Positions 10,314 to 64,000 of a stretch of 64,000 bases of DNA are shown here, piece by piece. Each line of letters starts with the position of its first letter. Within the stretch, counting starts at the first letter, position 1. The stretch comes from Candidatus Microgenomates bacterium. GTDB taxonomy: Bacteria > Patescibacteriota > JACPGU01. Where the stretch lies: contig JACPGU010000001.1 in assembly GCA_016188915.1 (NCBI GenBank), positions 123,106-187,105 of the forward strand, given 5' to 3'. The notes beneath the pieces are model-generated. The model made no database searches. It was not told the origin of the DNA and was given only the letters and a program-made list of their open reading frames with translations. The position numbers and the translations under genes are program-made.

Positions 10314-11432
10314 TTACTCGGAGGAGAGCTTCCTCTCCCAGTAAAGCCTTCCCGGGAATTCCTCGGTGGTTGGCTCCTGGTAGTCGGTCGCCTCCCACTC
10401 CAAGGACTCGGGGAGAATATTGATATTTATGCAAAATTCTCCCCCTTCCACATCGATTGGGTTCACGAGCCGGAAGTAGTCCCAGCTCGAATCGATGGCC
10501 TCCGGCTTCGTTTGAAGCTTGAAGCATTCCCGATACTGGCCGGCAGGAATCCCCTCCGCCGAGAGGGAAAAGCTAACGCTTCCTGTGTCGCCCGGCAAAA
10601 TCCTATAGCCGGTAGCATCAGAAACCACCGTCCTGTCGTACCAGGACGAAGAGTCAAAAAACTGACTCCCGGTAGCGTTAACCGTCACCATATACACGCG
10701 GTTCTTCCTGTTGGACAGGTTGTACCACGGCATATTCCCCGTATTCTTCACCCGAACTTCGGGGAAAAAATACGGCCAACTCCCGCCACGCTGCCCGGAC
10801 ACCAAGGTCACCGAGATTTCCTGATCGGTCACAGCGGCGTACTTCGGCTCGGTGCCTTCCGGCAGGACACCGATTTCTAATTCGGCCGTGGGAATCCAGA
10901 AGCTGTCCTTGCTCAAAACGGACAGGTCTTCGACAGTGGCGCGAACAGTGATGGTTTTGGTGCTTCCCTGCGCCACAGCCGGAAGAATAACCGCCATCGT
11001 CGCCACACCCCAATCGTTGGTCGTGACGATTTCGGTCGCGCCCAATTGAATTGAGCCGTCGTAAACTCGAAACGTCACCGGAGCCTTGAGCCGCGAGTAA
11101 TCGCAACCCTCTCTGCAGCTCCCGTGGATTTTTGCTCCAGTCGTCATTTCTTCTCCAGCCATGCCCACCTGATAGCTGTAATCCAGATAGGTGTCATCGG
11201 AAACCGCCCCCGAGCTTGCCGCCGAAATCCAGGAAACCACATCGCCTTCAGCGATGATGATGTTGCCCGGATTCTCCGGAATGGGTGGCTCCATGCCTTC
11301 GTCCAGGGTGGGCGGAACGGGCACAACCGGTGTCCCTCCCCCGCCTCCGCAACCGGATAGAAGAAGAATCGCAATCAGGAGCAAGAAAATGCCTCCCACC
11401 ACCGCCAACCCCACCTTTTTCATCTTTTTCAA
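10314..11432 (-). CDS. putative secreted lipoprotein, higher GC
   Basis: N-terminal MKKMKKVGLAVVGGIFLLLIAILLLSGC (signal peptide plus lipobox-like LSGC) then a Gly/Pro-rich linker. No known domain. Confidence 0.55.
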   Translation of the reverse strand: MKKMKKVGLAVVGGIFLLLIAILLLSGCGGGGGTPVVPVPPTLDEGMEPPIPENPGNIIIAEGDVVSWISAASSGAVSDDTYLDYSYQVGMAGEEMTTGAKIHGSCREGCDYSRLKAPVTFRVYDGSIQLGATEIVTTNDWGVATMAVILPAVAQGSTKTITVRATVEDLSVLSKDSFWIPTAELEIGVLPEGTEPKYAAVTDQEISVTLVSGQRGGSWPYFFPEVRVKNTGNMPWYNLSNRKNRVYMVTVNATGSQFFDSSSWYDRTVVSDATGYRILPGDTGSVSFSLSAEGIPAGQYRECFKLQTKPEAIDSSWDYFRLVNPIDVEGGEFCININILPESLEWEATDYQEPTTEEFPGRLYWERKLSSE

Positions 11433-56705: not shown

Positions 56706-56885
56706 CCCGCCATATAACTTTTGTTCGCACTTCGTCCGGGAATAGTTTCCGGTTTCTGCTATTCTCGGCAATATCGCTTTTGGCGCTTCCCCGCTTCCCC
56801 CTCGCGCCGGCCGATATTCTCCAATCTTTCCGCCGGCAAACCACCCCTCAAAAGGTGGTTTTATTTTGCTTTCTTTGGAAAACTA

Positions 56886-56914
56886 TTGACTTTTATCATA
56901 AAAAGGTGTATAAT
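56886..56914 (+). promoter_or_regulatory. sigma70-like promoter TTGACT-17-TATAAT (the -10 overlaps a candidate ATG)
   Basis: TTGACT 56886-56891, 17-nt spacer, TATAAT 56909-56914. Confidence 0.4.
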
Positions 56915-57578
56915 GATAGAGTGGTTTAAAAAATTGAAAGGGGGCCAAACGGCCATCATGAAGATCATTTACAGGAAGAATGGGGAGGAGCGGGAGACCC
57001 AACTATCCCACCTGGTTTTCAGGGGGATCGTCTGGAAGGTGGAGGAGAGATTCAAAAACAAATTCCTCCAGATTTACGCGACTCTCGAGATGCGCGGACA
57101 TCTCTCGACCGTCCTCAAAACGGTCAAAGAAAAAGGGCTGCACGCCATCGCGCAGGAGGCGTCTCCTCCGCTGTGGTTCGTCGCCTCCAACCCGGAACTC
57201 TTGGAAGAACAGGGGCTATCGTTCTCTCAAAGGGAAAATACCCTGATCATCATCAAGAAGAAGTTCCCGAAGAAGCTCCAGGATGATCCCTCTTTGGGGA
57301 TTAACAGCAAATTGGTGATTGTTTGCCAAAAGGTGCAGAAACTGGAAGATCTTCTCCGGCAAGAGGAGGAGACTCGGAGGATCGTCTTGCAGGCGATCAA
57401 TCCTGGCCGGAATGCGGAATTGGTGGGAAAACCCACCCCGCCACCTGCTCCTCCGTCACCTGCCTCGCCACCGACTCTGCAGCCTGGGCTGCAGGAAGCG
57501 ATCGAGAAAATCGGCGAAGAAGACACCGTCAAAATGACGGCCAAGGCGGAGAGGGAAAAGAAAAGACTGGTGGCCTGA
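56913..57578 (+). CDS. hypothetical protein with Pro-rich C-terminal region (alternative start 56958); in-frame ORF continues past TGA to 57830
   Basis: ORF. The TGA at 57576-57578 is followed by 84 in-frame sense codons with no start codon. Confidence 0.35.
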   Translation: MIEWFKKLKGGQTAIMKIIYRKNGEERETQLSHLVFRGIVWKVEERFKNKFLQIYATLEMRGHLSTVLKTVKEKGLHAIAQEASPPLWFVASNPELLEEQGLSFSQRENTLIIIKKKFPKKLQDDPSLGINSKLVIVCQKVQKLEDLLRQEEETRRIVLQAINPGRNAELVGKPTPPPAPPSPASPPTLQPGLQEAIEKIGEEDTVKMTAKAEREKKRLVA

Positions 57579-57971
57579 GAGCTGGAAAAGCGACTCCGGG
57601 AGGCCGAAAGGGAATCGGCCAAAAAGCCCCCTCGTCAAAAAAAGGACTGGCAGAAGACCGAACGAGGGCGGAGGACTCTGGCCCGGGCAGGCAAAGGCAC
57701 CTCCAACCGCCGAACCGGCTGGGATCCCAAGAAAGGGGTTAACCCCGCCGCCGACACCCACGGCCGCAAAAACGGCGGCAAGGCCAAGGCGACCGGGAAA
57801 AACGGCGGAGCCAAGGCCGGGAAGAAGTGATTTCAAAGGACGCGCGTAGCGCGTCCGCCAGCACCCCCGAAAGGGGGTGTTTTTTATGCGCGAATTTTTG
57901 AGAATAAGCAATTTAGAACTATGCTATAATGTGTTTACGACCTATCACCTATAATCTATCACCTAATTACA

Positions 57972-60246: not shown

Positions 60247-60289
60247 GAACACGACCTATAACTCACGGCCGTGAGTTATAGGTCGTGTT
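60247..60289. repeat. repeat family 2, copy C (40-nt perfect palindrome ACACGACCTATAACTCACGGCCGTGAGTTATAGGTCGTGT)
   Basis: Seen directly. Same arm sequence as copies A and B, but with no spacer. Confidence 0.7.
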
Positions 60290-60349: not shown

Positions 60350-60392
60350 ACAAAATGGGCGCCGATTTGCAGGGAGCAAATCGGCGCCTTTA
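60350..60392 (-). terminator. strong hairpin terminator (12-bp stem GGCGCCGATTTG/CAAATCGGCGCC)
   Basis: Immediately after the stop of the 80-aa ORF. On the minus strand it is followed by CATTTTGTG. Confidence 0.5.
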
Positions 60393-60632
60393 GGTAGACG
60401 CACCTGATGGCGCTGAAGTGGAAACGTCTAATTCATCTTCGCGAAGATCCAGTAAGGCGAGAAAATGATTCGTGCAGGCAAACCTCGCGGTAGATATCAC
60501 AGAAATTATCCCCCCATCGACAATGTGCGTCTTTGCCGAAACCCACATAATTCTCCTCTTGCACCCTTCAGCAAGACATCTATTGCCGTTGCCTTCCTCA
60601 ACAAAATATAATCGCCGAAACACTTTCTTCAC
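60390..60632 (-). CDS. small hypothetical protein
   Basis: ORF only. Confidence 0.3.
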   Translation of the reverse strand: MKKVFRRLYFVEEGNGNRCLAEGCKRRIMWVSAKTHIVDGGIISVISTARFACTNHFLALLDLREDELDVSTSAPSGAST

Positions 60633-60721
60633 CTCCTTTTTTTAAGTTGCGCTGAGAGTAAAGATGTTGCATTGCAACGTCTCTACGAAACAAAAATAGA
60701 CCCATCAAGAGTCCATTCGTG

Positions 60722-61129
60722 TTACATCGCGCCCAAATCCTGCAATGTTTTTTCAAATTTTTTAATTGCGGTTCTTGCTTCAAAATCCATCACATTGTAA
60801 TCCATGTTGTGCACCATTTCATTTCTCAATTTGTGCGCCTGCCACATATCATTGAAAAAGTCGCGGTCAAAATCGTCTCTTGGGATCATTTTCATCCGCT
60901 CCCCCATTGTCTGCCCGCGATAATTTAAGGATTTCAAAACATGGTCTAATAATTTGTCAGCATCTAAAACTGCTGTCTTGAAAGCCGAGGGTCGTCCGAC
61001 TTTCATCAAGGTCTCAATCTCCGCCCATTTTTCCCGCACATAGATCCTCTCTTGTACCGAAAGTCCACCCCGCGCGCTGGGAGAAAAAGAGGGGGTGAGG
61101 AGTTTTTTGAGGAAGGAAAGGAAGGACAT
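60722..61129 (-). CDS. hypothetical protein (DUF4145-like C-terminal region)
   Basis: HKLRNEMVHN segment reminiscent of DUF4145. Start ATG 61129 directly after the brnA stop. Confidence 0.3.
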   Translation of the reverse strand: MSFLSFLKKLLTPSFSPSARGGLSVQERIYVREKWAEIETLMKVGRPSAFKTAVLDADKLLDHVLKSLNYRGQTMGERMKMIPRDDFDRDFFNDMWQAHKLRNEMVHNMDYNVMDFEARTAIKKFEKTLQDLGAM

Positions 61130-61130
61130 G

Positions 61131-61397
61131 TTATTTTTTCGCAATGCCTTGTTTAATATAGCGTTTGATAAGTGACTGATACGGCACATCCAACTCATTG
61201 GCTTGCTCCTTGAGGCGAACCAGAAGAAATGACGGAAGACGAAGCGAGATTGACTGCGAAGACGGCTTGAGATTGGGGAAAAATGCCGGCACGAAATCAG
61301 CGCTGTCAAAATATTCGTCCAGCGATACTTTGTCCCAAAACTTTCTCTCTTCGTCCTCGTTTTTGAATTTTGGTACCTTTAATGATTTCTTAGGCAT
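61131..61397 (-). CDS. brnA: BrnA-like antitoxin (ribbon-helix-helix)
   Basis: MPKKSLKVPKFKNEDEERKFWDKVSLDEYFDSADFV...ISLRLPSFLLVRLKEQANELDVPYQSLIKRYI matches BrnA. 8-nt overlap with brnT. Confidence 0.65.
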   Translation of the reverse strand: MPKKSLKVPKFKNEDEERKFWDKVSLDEYFDSADFVPAFFPNLKPSSQSISLRLPSFLLVRLKEQANELDVPYQSLIKRYIKQGIAKK

Positions 61398-61677
61398 ACA
61401 ATTTCCTTTCTTTCTTATTGATTGGTCGCGCCGATATGACGCGGACATTATTGCTCCTGATAGTAAAAACTATAAAAAGAATTTTATTATTTTTTGTCGC
61501 TCCGAGTAAAATATATCTTTCTTCTTTGTCGGAATGCAATGTGTCTTTTGCTATCTTTTTGCGATAGTCGAAAAAGGACTCTTCGCATTCGCCGGAAGTT
61601 ATTTGATGTTTTTTCCAAATCTTTTCTCTATTGGCGCTGTCCCATTGAAATTCTAATGGTTCTTTCAATATCTTCAT
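61390..61677 (-). CDS. brnT: BrnT-like toxin (DUF497 ribonuclease)
   Basis: FQWDSANREKIWKKHQITSGECEESFFD...HSDKEERYILLGATKNNKILFIVFTIRSNNVRVISARPINKKERKLY matches BrnT. Confidence 0.7.
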   Translation of the reverse strand: MKILKEPLEFQWDSANREKIWKKHQITSGECEESFFDYRKKIAKDTLHSDKEERYILLGATKNNKILFIVFTIRSNNVRVISARPINKKERKLYA

Positions 61678-61791
61678 ATTCCTATTGTATATGTCACACG
61701 CTACATGTCAAGACATTTTCGCGCAAAAAAAGTCCCTCCGCCCACAAGGGTCAGAGGGACCAAGCATCTAAGGGTCAAGAGAGCCGAGGGC

Positions 61792-62517
61792 TTAAGGAGC
61801 CAGTTGCGGAACAACGACCCGCAGCCGACTGCCGGCACCCCACACGCCGGCGCCGCCGAACTCGTAGACGTCCACGACCAGACGACCACCGCCGCTCAGA
61901 CCCACGACGGCAACGAAGAAACGGCCATCTTCCTCCCTGTTAATGAGAAAGAAATACCAGCCTGGGACGAGCTTGTCGCGATGCCTCTCGCAGAAATCGA
62001 CAACCTGGGACTGTTCCCAGTAAAGGGTGCTAAGACTTCGGCCTTTGAATCCTTCGTAGATCTGCCGGAATTTGGCGTTTTCTACTAACTCTAGAACGGT
62101 AGCCATGGCTTTTGAAGTTGGTTTGCTTGGCTTGTCGAGTTCCCATCTCCTGAAATTTGGGCCAATACCATCCTTGAAGACATTCTCCGCGTCAGCGATG
62201 GTTCTCTGGCCGTCCGTATCGAAGATAGGAACGCTCTCGTAGCCAGGAACGACTTTAAGAAATGGATTGATTAGGCCGAGAGCTTTTGCAACATTGGGTT
62301 TCGAGTCGGTGGCGGGAACAATCTTTGCTGTTCCTTGCAAAAAGCTCAAGATGTGAGGCAGATATTCCCTACCTCTTGCGCGCACCATTTCCTCGTCAGT
62401 AGCGCCAGCTCTCACCAACGCATCCACTAACTGCCTTGCCGTGCTCCACTTCAAAGAAGGCATTGCCTTCCTCCTTTCCGGGGCATTGCCCCACCAAAAT
62501 GCTGTTTGGTTTGGCAA
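61792..62517 (-). CDS. hypothetical protein, higher GC (probable start 62463 after AAGGAGG RBS)
   Basis: ORF with its own promoter and a long structured leader. Confidence 0.4.
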   Translation of the reverse strand: MPNQTAFWWGNAPERRKAMPSLKWSTARQLVDALVRAGATDEEMVRARGREYLPHILSFLQGTAKIVPATDSKPNVAKALGLINPFLKVVPGYESVPIFDTDGQRTIADAENVFKDGIGPNFRRWELDKPSKPTSKAMATVLELVENAKFRQIYEGFKGRSLSTLYWEQSQVVDFCERHRDKLVPGWYFFLINREEDGRFFVAVVGLSGGGRLVVDVYEFGGAGVWGAGSRLRVVVPQLAP

Positions 62518-62640
62518 ACATTGTTTGCCACAGCAGAAAGGGGTCTAGCGCGGGAAAAGGTCGTTCCTCGGCCGTAGCGAAGCGAAGGAAGAGGTGCGAC
62601 CTTGAGGAGCGCCAACCAGACCACTTTCTGCTGTGGCAAA
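62511..62640 (-). promoter_or_regulatory. structured 5' leader: 22-bp inverted repeat (TTTGCCACAGCAGAAAGGGGTCT / AGACCACTTTCTGCTGTGGCAAA) enclosing nested hairpins
   Basis: Long near-perfect IR with nested AAGGTCG/CGACCTT helices, between the promoter at 62692-62720 and the RBS. Confidence 0.4.
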
Positions 62641-62691
62641 TTGCTAATTTTCAAAGAACCAAAACTGCGCCATGTTGCCCTCAATACCATT

Positions 62692-62720
62692 ATTCTACTT
62701 CATAGAGCCAAAAATGTCAA
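62692..62720 (-). promoter_or_regulatory. sigma70-like promoter (minus) TTGACA-17-TAGAAT
   Basis: Plus tgtcaa 62715-62720 and attcta 62692-62697. Confidence 0.5.
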
Positions 62721-62826
62721 GTTGTTGGCTCCATGTTTCCACGCGGAGACAGTGTGGACAGTTTCGCTCCATGCAGGCCTCCGGCGAGGAGGAAGCATGA
62801 AGCGAACGAAGATTCTGTGAAAATAC

Positions 62827-62982
62827 CTACAACGCTGGCCACTTCGTATGCCAATCGGTCGCGTTCTGGAAAGCCATGCCGGCGGAGATTAATTTTTCCT
62901 CGCCGAAACGAGGGCCGAGTATTTGGAGCCCGACAGGCAGAGGGGTAGTTGGTAGTTGGTAGTTGGAGAAGATTTGGAAGCG
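62827..62982 (-). pseudogene. remnant of a reverse-transcriptase 3' end (no start codon), homologous to the C-terminus of the RT at 63684-64000
   Basis: Translates to ...LQILGPRFGEEKLISAGMAFQNATDWHTKWPAL* versus the RT ...SGLLGHGNAKKLEKLISIGIAFQNATDWHTKPPLLS*. Bounded upstream by an in-frame TGA. Confidence 0.4.
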
Positions 62983-63055
62983 TCAGATATAGGGGTAAAA
63001 AGTTTTGAGAGGAGAGAGAGATGGCATAGAGGGATCGAGATCAAATGAATAGACC

Positions 63056-63397
63056 CTACCCTGAAATTAAGAGAATTATTTTTTCTTGCAGTTCTTTGAA
63101 AGTATTATTAGCTACTTTTTCTACAAAAGCAACTCCGCGGCTTTGCCAATCAATACTTTTGAGCTGATCGGACAAAATAGCCCCTGTTATTTTCTTGCCG
63201 TTGTGCGCGACTTCAAAAGGATATGTTTTTATTTTGGAGGTAACAGGACAAACGAGCGCGAGTCCTGATCTTTCGTTATAATCTTTTGGCGAAACAACAA
63301 CAGCCGGCCTCCTGCCTTTCTGCTCGTGACCAGATGTAGTGTAAAAATCAACCCAAATACAATCTCCTCTTTCGGGAACATATTTTGTTTTCACCAC
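63056..63397 (-). CDS. mazF: MazF/PemK-family toxin (endoribonuclease)
   Basis: VPERGDCIWVDF...RPAVVVSP...LVCPVTSKIK...AILSDQLKSIDWQSR matches the MazF/PemK fold. Confidence 0.8.
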   Translation of the reverse strand: MVKTKYVPERGDCIWVDFYTTSGHEQKGRRPAVVVSPKDYNERSGLALVCPVTSKIKTYPFEVAHNGKKITGAILSDQLKSIDWQSRGVAFVEKVANNTFKELQEKIILLISG

Positions 63398-63633
63398 ACT
63401 TCCTTTCCCTTTGCATCACCCCAACTAATATGTTCCGGCAGATTTTGAGGGGATATTTTCTTGACGAGATCGACTAGAGTAGTATTTTTTTTCCTAATCG
63501 GCTGAACGACTATATGTTTTCTCCCAGCAACGATAGTAACTGCTACTCCTTCTGACAGATGATAGTGTTCGGCAATGTCTTTGGGTAGACGCACCGCCAG
63601 ACTATTACCCCACTTTTGAACTTTAGTCGTCAT
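63391..63633 (-). CDS. mazE: MazE-like antitoxin (AbrB/SpoVT-type swapped hairpin)
   Basis: VQKWGNSLAVRLPKDIAEHYHLSEGVAV matches MazE. Overlaps mazF by 7 nt. The AGTAGTATCTACT palindrome at 63645-63657 just upstream is a likely operator. Confidence 0.75.
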   Translation of the reverse strand: MTTKVQKWGNSLAVRLPKDIAEHYHLSEGVAVTIVAGRKHIVVQPIRKKNTTLVDLVKKISPQNLPEHISWGDAKGKEVW

Positions 63634-63683
63634 ATGAATTTGCTTAGTAGTATCTACTTAGTATATACATCCTGCTATGACTG

Positions 63684-64000
63684 TCAACTAAGTAATGGGG
63701 GCTTTGTGTGCCAATCGGTCGCGTTCTGGAAAGCAATGCCAATAGAGATTAGTTTTTCCAACTTTTTCGCATTTCCATGCCCCAAAAGCCCCGAATACGA
63801 AGCGAGTGTTTCGGGAGAAGGACATTCCGCTACTCTTTTCATCATACGCCTTTTTGTCGCAGTCCTCAATACTCTGTGGTCAGGGAAATGCACCCAGCCC
63901 AAGAAATCCAGACCGGACGACAAGGTGGCAACGAAAGTTTTGCGCGGATGAAGCTCCAGCTTTAATTTTTCTTTAAGAAATTCTGCAATTCGCGACAATT
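63684..64000 (-). CDS. reverse transcriptase, C-terminal part (gene continues beyond window end); DGR/retron/group-II-like RT
   Basis: LKLELHPRKTFVATLSSGLDFLGWVHF is the RT domain 7 / thumb junction motif (h-h-L-h-h-K-T, G-h-D-F-L-G). Confidence 0.6.
   Translation of the reverse strand, partial: LSRIAEFLKEKLKLELHPRKTFVATLSSGLDFLGWVHFPDHRVLRTATKRRMMKRVAECPSPETLASYSGLLGHGNAKKLEKLISIGIAFQNATDWHTKPPLLS

Follow-up and report, generated by a model that had tools for sequence, protein, structure and literature searches.

A diversity-generating retroelement at the edge of a Patescibacteria sequence window, with a second variable protein, leader hairpins and toxin-antitoxin neighbours

Here, we analysed the end of a 64,000-nt stretch of contig JACPGU010000001.1 from Candidatus Microgenomates bacterium (the window, meaning this whole stretch), where a run of toxin-antitoxin (TA) and hypothetical genes adjoins a partial reverse transcriptase (RT) gene that is cut by the window edge. 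The locus is an ordinary and genuine diversity-generating retroelement (DGR) that is mis-annotated in the public record, and the RT belongs to a complete, probably functional DGR of a Patescibacteria chromosome. The explanation that we consider highly probable for the region as a whole combines this complete DGR at the window edge with an inserted mazEF cassette, a second variable protein (p223), hitch-hiking TA pairs, and hairpins in the 5′ untranslated regions (UTRs) of the variable-protein genes. The original prediction, made from the letters of the window, had described one cluster of TA and defence-like genes ending in an RT of the retron, defence-associated RT (DRT) or DGR type. All the genes that it named are present where it placed them, on the minus strand throughout according to the list of open reading frames (ORFs), and among the RT types that it offered, DGR holds, given the repeats and the accessory protein described below, whereas retron and DRT are rejected.

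The retroelement beyond the window edge

The window contains the C-terminal 104 aa of the RT, with RT motif 7 (GLDFLGW) inside this part, as had been predicted. An exact look-up of the MazE protein encoded next to the RT yielded L001, a Logan contig of 3635 nt, in which the final 1156 nt are the reverse complement of window positions 62845-64000 with 0 mismatches and which adds 2479 nt past base 64000, bringing the DNA covered to 66.5 kb (virtual window coordinate = 66480 minus L001 coordinate). The only other exact look-up to yield a contig (L007) was that of the 223-aa form of the hypothetical protein treated below; MazF and the 241-aa form of that protein gave none, and a homologue search with the RT fragment returned only fragments of <=72% identity, the exact full-length protein not being among them. 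At NCBI, the same proteins stand under consecutive accessions in a 'Candidatus Microgenomates bacterium' metagenome-assembled genome (MAG) contig of 198,983 nt, in the order BrnT, p241, (MazF), MazE, RT, 'four helix bundle protein', (one ORF), target. Because this gene order is the same and the accessions are consecutive, the join of the window and L001 is no assembly artefact. The DGR is not annotated as such in the deposited genome, where MBI2448135.1 and MBI2448136.1 name the RT a 'group II intron reverse transcriptase domain-containing protein' and the accessory protein Avd a 'four helix bundle protein'.

Along the minus strand, L001 presents the target gene with its variable repeat (VR), the template repeat (TR), an inverted gene for bAvd, and the RT, in this order:

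L001 325-918: target gene, 197 aa, with the VR at its 3′ end
L001 775-900: VR, 126 nt, ending 18 nt before the target stop codon
L001 1257-1382: TR, 126 nt, 482 nt downstream of the VR and 87% identical to it
L001 1413-1745: bAvd gene, 110 aa, on the strand opposite to the RT (Pfam PF22296)
L001 1774-2796: complete RT gene, 340 aa, reaching virtual coordinate about 64706
63684..64000, minus strand: 3′ end of the RT gene, last 104 codons and stop, an exact match to L001

The original prediction had expected the system to continue beyond the window and had proposed extending the contig and searching for TR/VR pairs; both yielded results just beyond base 64000, with TR, Avd, VR and target located 0.7-2.5 kb past it.

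Several lines of evidence converge on the DGR assignment. In the homologous block of the two repeats, 15 of the 16 substitutions fall on TR adenines and the remaining one on a T, a bias for which our binomial estimate is about 1e-7 with A taken as ~28% of the TR; the 3′-terminal 22 nt of TR and VR are identical, with divergence beyond. The accessory protein matches the NCBIfam model NF033474 (DivGenRetAVD) with E 1.6e-19 and 70.1 bits, below the curated cut-off of 80. The RT itself carries LGNLTSQ, which is the DGR-type version of motif 4 ([LIV]GxxxSQ), together with the catalytic YADD. Its nearest solved structure is chain 8ub7_A (328 aa; 148.5 bits, compared with 75.5 bits for group II RTs), which, judging from its length and the deposition series, we take to be the Bordetella bRT. 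Thus, the RT is of the DGR type because TR, VR and Avd are present, because of its motifs, and because its score against the solved structure is about twice that against group II enzymes.

The alternative that the RT is a retron, DRT or abortive infection (Abi)-type defence enzyme, with MazF or BrnT as its toxic effectors in a tripartite TA-like defence system, is very improbable. RT-plus-toxin arrangements are known for retrons (PMC8632793) and several of the UG/DRT RT models of PADLOC match the RT (RT_UG17, for instance, with 108.9 bits), but these matches rank below the generic RT model (184 bits). Moreover, the NCBIfam retron, Drt2, Drt3a and Drt5 models reach only 17-71 bits against cut-offs of 200-550, and the retron RT model 51 bits against a cut-off of 235. 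Neither the msr/msd-like RNA for which the original prediction had proposed to look nor any other Rfam RNA was matched in the window or L001. The neighbours of the RT are Avd and a TR with adenine-specific mismatches, without DRT effectors, and the TA pairs are absent from all 140 related loci described below. Still less credible is the NCBI annotation of the RT as a group II intron-encoded protein with unrelated neighbours. Apart from the product name, it has in its favour that TIGR04416 is the best NCBIfam match (E 1e-39); however, the score of 136.7 bits is far under the cut-off of 300, the RT has only 340 aa and lacks the maturase X and endonuclease domains, Rfam detects no intron RNA domains in the window or L001, the motif LGNLTSQ is not the group II version, and Avd and the TR/VR pair are present. 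The TR/VR/Avd evidence, the profile scores below cut-off and the lack of an Rfam RNA thus lead us to reject the retron, DRT and group II readings. Of the two circumstances under which the original prediction was to be abandoned, one, TA genes that are unrelated neighbours, is what we found (see below), and the other, a group II intron RT, is not.

A scan with the full RT over one genome per GTDB species gave 79 loci with RTs 60-69% identical to the one here, nearly all titled as Patescibacteria or candidate phyla radiation (CPR) MAGs, with a few under other titles. In 76 of the 79, the gene immediately upstream of the RT is an inverted Avd gene, and in the remaining 3 the RT is at a contig edge. 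By analogy with the Bordetella phage DGR, whose mechanism serves as the paradigm (PMC8632793, PMC8867640), an RT-Avd complex would copy the TR RNA, inserting random bases opposite adenines, and the resulting cDNA would replace the VR, recoding about 15 positions of the C-terminal binding surface of the target.

Two further observations concern DGR anatomy. Directly after the TR, at L001 1394-1414 (virtual about 65066-65086), lies a terminator-like hairpin, CCCGCC-tctct-GGCGGG followed by TTTT (z -2.6), which could end the TR transcript ahead of the antisense avd or terminate avd on the other strand. In a related locus (L085), an 80-nt segment of the RT 3′ region (1724-1803 vs 10920-11000) is repeated 8 kb upstream with 96% identity, pointing to a further RT copy or to what is left of one; loci with several DGR units may thus not be uncommon.

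A second variable protein and the leader hairpin

Within the window, the original prediction had singled out a hypothetical gene of higher GC content (0.52-0.55 vs 0.40-0.45 in its neighbours) with a structured leader. Both features are real, the leader containing a 23-nt inverted repeat that is 96% complementary, with a fold z-score of -3.9; what had been overlooked is that this gene with its leader is the DGR-related part within the window. Its features are as follows:

62692..62720, minus strand: promoter of p223, sigma-70-like, TTGACA-17-TAGAAT
62520..62644, minus strand: p223 leader hairpin, with a 17-bp conserved basal stem (TTTGCCACAGCAGAAAG / CTTTCTGCTGTGGCAAA) and a 71-nt apical insert
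61792..62463, minus strand: p223, 223 aa from the ATG at 62463, ribosome-binding site (RBS) GGAAAGGAGG; the NCBI call is 241 aa from 62517
61798..61920, minus strand: VR-like segment of p223 (FFVAVVGLSGGGRLVVDVYEFGGAGVWGAGSRLRVVVPQLA), 7 A in 123 nt
61734..61750, minus strand: terminator-like hairpin and T-run after p223

Relatives of p223 are numerous: a word-indexed search found 3, whereas an exhaustive HMMER search gave 1185 representatives, 508 of them at E<=1e-10. Members of the family, which lacks a Pfam match, are mostly 200-240 aa long and have the C-terminal ~155 residues in common. The family alignment ends in FFVAxVxxxxxGxLxVxVxRFxxxxVWxAxxRxRxVVPQL, a C-terminus in which conserved scaffold positions alternate with positions occupied by D, Y, S, H, G, N, A, C or R. 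The family hidden Markov model (HMM) matches both the ORF in the target position of the DGR of one related locus (L080; E 1.3e-8) and the TR of that locus, where 21/21 TR/VR mismatches are at TR adenines. A metagenome scan for p223 relatives added 61 loci, ~46 of which have enough downstream sequence; in ~24 of these, a cognate TR is found 290-360 nt after the p223-like stop codon, with an inverted Avd and an RT next, the latter 55-68% identical to the RT here. The TR consensus of the family encodes FFVANVNVNSDGxLKVNVNRFENSNVWNAENRHRVVVPKLA, and the p223 segment FFVAVVGLSGGGRLVVDVYEFGGAGVWGAGSRLRVVVPQLA departs from it exactly at Asn and other A-containing codons. This VR-like segment holds 7 adenines in its 123 nt, compared with 23% A over the whole gene, and in comparisons with heterologous family TRs, p223 is mismatched at 78-88% of the A sites vs 19-36% of the other sites. 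Thus, p223 is a DGR-type variable protein, the VR of which was clearly adenine-mutagenised in the past, and part of its higher GC content is due to this mutagenesis.

No cognate TR for p223 was found in the 66.5 kb of the window and L001 by an A-tolerant scan, the family HMM or a tblastn search with the TR consensus. The TR of the neighbouring DGR was considered as the template and rejected, the best local match being only 24 nt. The brnTA pair sits where relatives of p223 have TR, Avd and RT. Because no cognate TR is within reach and brnTA occupies this place, p223 seems to be either an orphan (frozen) or a trans target of a DGR outside the DNA covered. That p223 is actively served in trans by a second DGR of the same genome, perhaps one whose RT 3′ end is represented by repeat copy A (see below), is a possibility that we regard as unlikely. 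Copy A, at the very start of L001, keeps the reading frame of the RT tail (…FQNATDWHTKFPIT*); the ORF, promoter, RBS and leader hairpin of p223 are intact; and multi-target DGRs and targets served in trans are documented (PMC8632793). Against this stand the failure of all three methods to detect a p223-type TR in the window or L001, the occupation by brnTA of the TR place of the ~24 relatives, and the fact that about half of the sampled relatives with enough flank are likewise without TR, Avd and RT.

The relationship between p223 and the target of the neighbouring DGR is faint. BLASTP gives no match between them, hhalign with a 3-sequence profile gives a probability of 0.17, and a 63-sequence profile of p223 aligns co-linearly with the target family over 123 columns, weakly (E 0.004, probability 8%). 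The AlphaFold2 (AF2) model of p223 has a pLDDT of 88, compared with 39.9 when it was built from 3 sequences only. In the predicted structure, the DGR-variable residues of the family would occupy alternate positions of two adjacent beta-strands, and the predicted fold has no recognisable relative among solved structures and is not recognisably of the C-type lectin kind. Elsewhere in the p223 family, P0169 (560 aa), P0170 (476 aa) and L132 contain two or three tandem variable domains, or tandem paralogous genes. At L098 729-2488, a p223-family gene is directly followed by an RT (55% identity), with no Avd detected and no TR by the criteria used; this cassette may be a variant or may have decayed.

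Both variable-protein genes at the locus carry a conserved long hairpin in the 5′ UTR. The median fold z of the 250 nt upstream of p223-family genes is -3.4, with 23 of 41 loci below -3, and that of the 250 nt upstream of genes of the DGR target family is -2.4. The shared hairpin is located 30-60 nt after the promoter and 40-60 nt before the RBS, and its consensus of about 60 nt reads YGCCAYAGC-N3-AAAG ... CUUU-N3-GCURUGGCRAA, with a conserved G.U closing pair. When 12 training instances are aligned by sequence, 96% of the pairs form, 15 of the 17 pairs show compensatory changes, and the covariation score is 0.76 vs 0.26 in shuffles. Folding was itself the reason for which instances were picked or detected, which inflates the percentage paired; the genomic position and the compensatory changes constitute the independent evidence.

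A covariance model (R1) built from these 12 instances and scanned over the 1.2 Mb of RT-anchored loci gave about 26 sites. Of these, 22 precede the RT start by 1.4-1.9 kb, a position immediately 5′ of the target gene, and 18 are in loci outside the training set. In the 64-kb window, the p223 leader is the only match (33.7 bits, E 2.7e-5), and the leader of the neighbouring DGR target is matched as well (L001 184-259, 25.3 bits), with all 17 pairs formed. Re-alignment by sequence alone of 16 non-training matches gave 92% pairing and 14 of 17 compensatory pairs, with a G.U closing pair in 13 of the 16; the G.U closing pair speaks for an RNA on the sense strand. Searched against Rfam, neither the window hairpin nor seven of the best instances match a family, and no description of the element was found in the searchable literature. 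Most probably, the hairpin acts in cis, as an RNA that controls how variable-protein mRNAs are expressed or how stable they are; more speculatively, it might act on their translation, stability or RNase III processing. By eye, a second small element, GCCUGGGGCCC...(loop)...GGGUGAGGGGC, can be made out between the hairpin and the RBS at several loci, with both target families represented; in L104, L108, L022 and L110 it lies about 20-70 nt ahead of the start codon, and window 62470-62500 has it in weaker form.

Toxin-antitoxin pairs, RT-tail repeats and the remaining window genes

The two TA pairs and three copies of a repeat derived from the RT 3′ end are arranged as follows:

63660..63687, minus strand: mazEF promoter, TTGACA-16-TATACT, with the -35 box overlapping the RT stop codon
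63391..63633, minus strand: mazE, antitoxin, 80 aa (Pfam PF04014, 44.1 bits; exact copy on L001)
63056..63397, minus strand: mazF, endoribonuclease toxin, 112-113 aa (PF02452, 87 bits), overlapping mazE by 4-7 nt
61390..61677, minus strand: brnT, toxin, 95 aa (PF04365, 74.8 bits), with its own promoter at 61684-61711
61131..61397, minus strand (alternative start 61448): brnA, antitoxin, 88 aa from the ATG at 61397 (PF12441, 90.2 bits; NCBIfam BrnA, E 3.1e-9)
63702..63759, minus strand: repeat copy B, 58 nt, encoding the non-conserved C-terminal tail of the RT (EKLISIGIAFQNATDWHTK)
62842..62899, minus strand: repeat copy C, 58 nt, a remnant RT 3′ end that, by eye, reads ...EKLISAGMAFQNATDWHTKWPAL* (stop codon)
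L001 1-47 (virtual 66433-66479): repeat copy A, reading ...FQNATDWHTKFPIT*, about 280 nt upstream of the DGR target

Both TA assignments of the original prediction are borne out. A toxin of the PemK/MazF fold follows an antitoxin of the AbrB/MazE fold in overlapping genes, both with Pfam scores above the cut-offs, and MazF reaches 127.6 bits on the equivalog-level NCBIfam model NF007386, above its cut-off of 120. Likewise, a BrnT toxin precedes a CopG/BrnA antitoxin, and the predicted 8-nt overlap is correct if BrnA starts at the ATG at 61397. The operator-like palindrome assigned to mazEF, AGTAG-ATA-CTACT (also GTATATAC), does lie between the mazE promoter and start codon, but it is too short to tell from chance. 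Sigma-70-like promoters with 11/12 consensus matches precede mazE, p223 and brnT, such that three independent transcription units, each with its own promoter, would follow the RT: mazEF, p223, and brnTA with two small ORFs after it.

What did not withstand comparison is the idea of a single TA and defence cluster functionally tied to the RT. PADLOC models match no protein other than the RT, and that by generic RT models, and homologues of MazE, MazF, BrnT and BrnA were found by single-sequence tblastn in none of the 79 RT-anchored or 61 p223-anchored loci. Pfam annotation of the first two ORFs downstream of the RT, to which the profile part of this test was confined (67 loci), identified MreB, NUDIX, secretion ATPases, FolD and other housekeeping proteins, with nothing recurrent. 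With MazEF and BrnTA missing from every one of the 140 related loci, the TA pairs stand next to the RT incidentally and are not parts of its system; as autonomous addiction modules, MazEF and BrnTA could persist here as selfish or stabilising hitch-hikers.

The placement of mazEF appears to have left a trace in the repeats. Copies B and C form an imperfect direct repeat, 86% identical, that brackets an 860-nt mazEF cassette; the 23-nt repeat core has 2 matches in the window vs 0 expected, and the string GTAGATACTAC of the mazE promoter region follows, by eye, both copy A and copy B. The repeat encodes the ~20-aa C-terminal tail of the RT, before which RT homologues stop. Neither the repeat nor the tail that it encodes was detected in the 140 related loci, and the 22-nt repeat core has 0 matches in the metagenome and viral collections. 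Since duplicated sequence from the RT 3′ end flanks it on both sides, mazEF is best regarded as a secondary insertion, or a product of Campbell-type recombination, at that end. Three other readings of repeats in this region were tried and rejected. A DGR-type adenine bias between copies B and C is not apparent by eye, the 8 differences being transitions and transversions at all four bases; an integron-like attC finds no support, the 58-mer being without an internal inverted repeat and the 20 kb examined without an integrase; and a 17-nt repeat (D6) flanking brnTA is too short to tell from chance. Both Logan contigs of the sample break within the RT-tail repeat, L001 ending and L007 starting in copy C.

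Several points weigh against the overall explanation. A candidate stem-loop 3′ of the VR, adjacent to the IMH site (for the initiation of mutagenic homing), folds no better than shuffles (z = +0.23), and VR variants of the target were looked for without success, the 90% cluster to which it belongs having a single member. Position and the sense-strand G.U pairs are all that the proposed function of the hairpin is based on. Distant TA families, further away from the RT, could be missed by the test applied here. The DNA covered ends at repeat copy A, so that a second DGR serving p223 may lie upstream. Finally, in L019 (11009-12652; Paceibacterota MAG DASWIZ010000033), an MNT-like nucleotidyltransferase gene and an R-x4-H (HEPN-like) gene directly follow the RT stop. 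The L019 insert is bracketed by a 36-nt direct repeat, 89% identical, that overlaps the RT stop codon, and it also holds a VR-like remnant ORF ending ...DWGDDWWFAALRK as well as copies of a 27-nt repeat found upstream of the target of that DGR. An insertion hot spot at the RT 3′ end, or a stabilising TA role, is therefore a minor possibility.

Alternatively, the TA modules would have been functionally recruited, with mazEF co-transcribed by read-through from the RT and stabilising a deletion-prone locus, or with the ACA-cutting MazF modulating the A-rich TR RNA. Chromosomal TA cassettes do stabilise neighbouring DNA in integron arrays, the -35 box of mazE overlaps the RT stop so that read-through is possible, and the L019 pair is inserted at exactly the same place, again flanked by repeats. 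However, only 2 of ~68 loci with readable downstream sequence have such an insert, the TA families in these two loci are not related to each other, conservation across related loci is lacking, and mazEF has its own strong promoter. Accordingly, we consider recruitment improbable and favour incidental insertion of the TA pairs.

The remaining ORFs at this end of the window are small:

60722..61129, minus strand: small helical protein, 135 aa from the ATG, or 105 aa from the GTG at 61039
60390..60632, minus strand: 80-aa ORF, function without assignment according to the ORF list and Pfam, followed by a terminator at 60358-60388

For the small helical ORF, the GTG at 61039 has the better RBS, and the gene call in L007 is also 105 aa. 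Its earlier label, 'DUF4145-like', is not reproduced by any profile library: in Pfam, DUF4145 does not appear even at E<=10, and the only match is DUF4142, below threshold at 20.6 bits vs a cut-off of 27. Searches of PADLOC, NCBIfam and PDB sequences gave nothing, and PHROGs a single weak match of unknown function. By eye, the ORF carries an R-x4-H string (LRNEMVH). Its only homologue among the 79 RT-anchored loci (L014 8135-8434, 29% identity to the 135-aa form) is directly upstream of the DGR target of that locus, which may be a coincidence. Downstream of the 80-aa ORF, the intergenic positions 60248-60289 form a perfect loopless palindrome of 21+21 nt (AACACGACCTATAACTCACGG/CCGTGAGTTATAGGTCGTGTT), listed as terminator-like in the scan. 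Further into the window, positions 57400-57800 are anomalous in composition (GC 0.62, AT skew +0.52), with overlapping ORFs on both strands; the 285-aa ORF at 56721-57578 has no Pfam match.

Implications and comparison with known systems

In the deposited genome, nothing points to the DGR or to either of its variable proteins, and the present findings correct the annotation. They also show that adjacency of an RT and toxins can be coincidental, a useful negative for the mining of defence systems. Arguably, the by-products of the analysis, the p223 family and the hairpin, may matter more than the locus itself. A large family without a Pfam entry emerges as a DGR target family, with a confidently predicted fold that is not recognisably a C-type lectin, and the leader hairpin provides a first handle on the regulation of Patescibacteria hypervariable proteins as well as a new sequence signature for finding DGR targets, orphan ones included. 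Taken together, these results allow a joint proposition, which we put forward tentatively and with rather less than even confidence, that an undescribed hairpin marks the 5′ UTRs of variable genes across at least two Patescibacteria target families and that massive variation is carried, in the p223 family, on a scaffold that departs from the C-type lectin paradigm. If this is true, DGR clade 2 (see below) would have in the hairpin a dedicated element for cis-regulation or processing, possibly coupling target expression to the retroelement.

In its organization, the locus corresponds, as judged from gene order and repeats, to the architecture B3, 'TR-(avd)-RT', of DGR cassettes (Wu et al. 2018, PMC5758913) and to the Patescibacteria-restricted DGR clade 2 of Roux et al. 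2021 (PMC8144416). It shares with the B3 DGRs of Patescibacteria/CPR the order and orientation of target with 3′ VR, TR, inverted avd and RT, and the adenine-specific mismatches. It differs from them in the addition of mazEF at the RT 3′ end, three RT-tail repeats, an adjacent orphan variable protein of another family, and the ~20-aa RT tail. With the DGR of Bordetella phage BPP-1 (mtd-avd-TR-brt), it has in common the RT-Avd pair, the TR/VR pair, A-to-N mutagenesis and a VR at the C-terminus of a small binding protein. By contrast, the DGR described here is chromosomal, its avd is inverted between TR and RT, its target is not Mtd-like, an IMH-adjacent hairpin is not significant, and the RT-10 RNA motif is not detected by Rfam.

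The TA pairs are conventional. MazEF resembles the E. coli type in domain content, in its small overlapping genes and in having its own promoter, although MazE scores only 57.6 bits on the E. coli equivalog model, the cut-off of which is 113. BrnTA resembles the Brucella type in domain content, in the overlap of the pair and in its own promoter, with the toxin gene first, as is usual in the family.

Among structured RNAs, the closest counterparts of the hairpin are the motifs RT-1 to RT-19 found near bacterial RT genes, including RT-10 of the BPP-1 DGR (Weinberg et al. 2017, PMC5737381). The hairpin is likewise a structured RNA associated with RT/DGR loci, but unlike these motifs it is located in the 5′ UTR of variable genes, 1.4-1.9 kb upstream of the RT, and not between TR and RT. 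Finally, VRs are held to sit 'systematically' on C-Lec folds (PMC8144416), and p223 does resemble the variable proteins with the C-type lectin fold, such as Mtd, TvpA, AvpA and TaqVP, in that its VR is at the extreme C-terminus, where scaffold residues are interleaved with variable positions coded by AAY.

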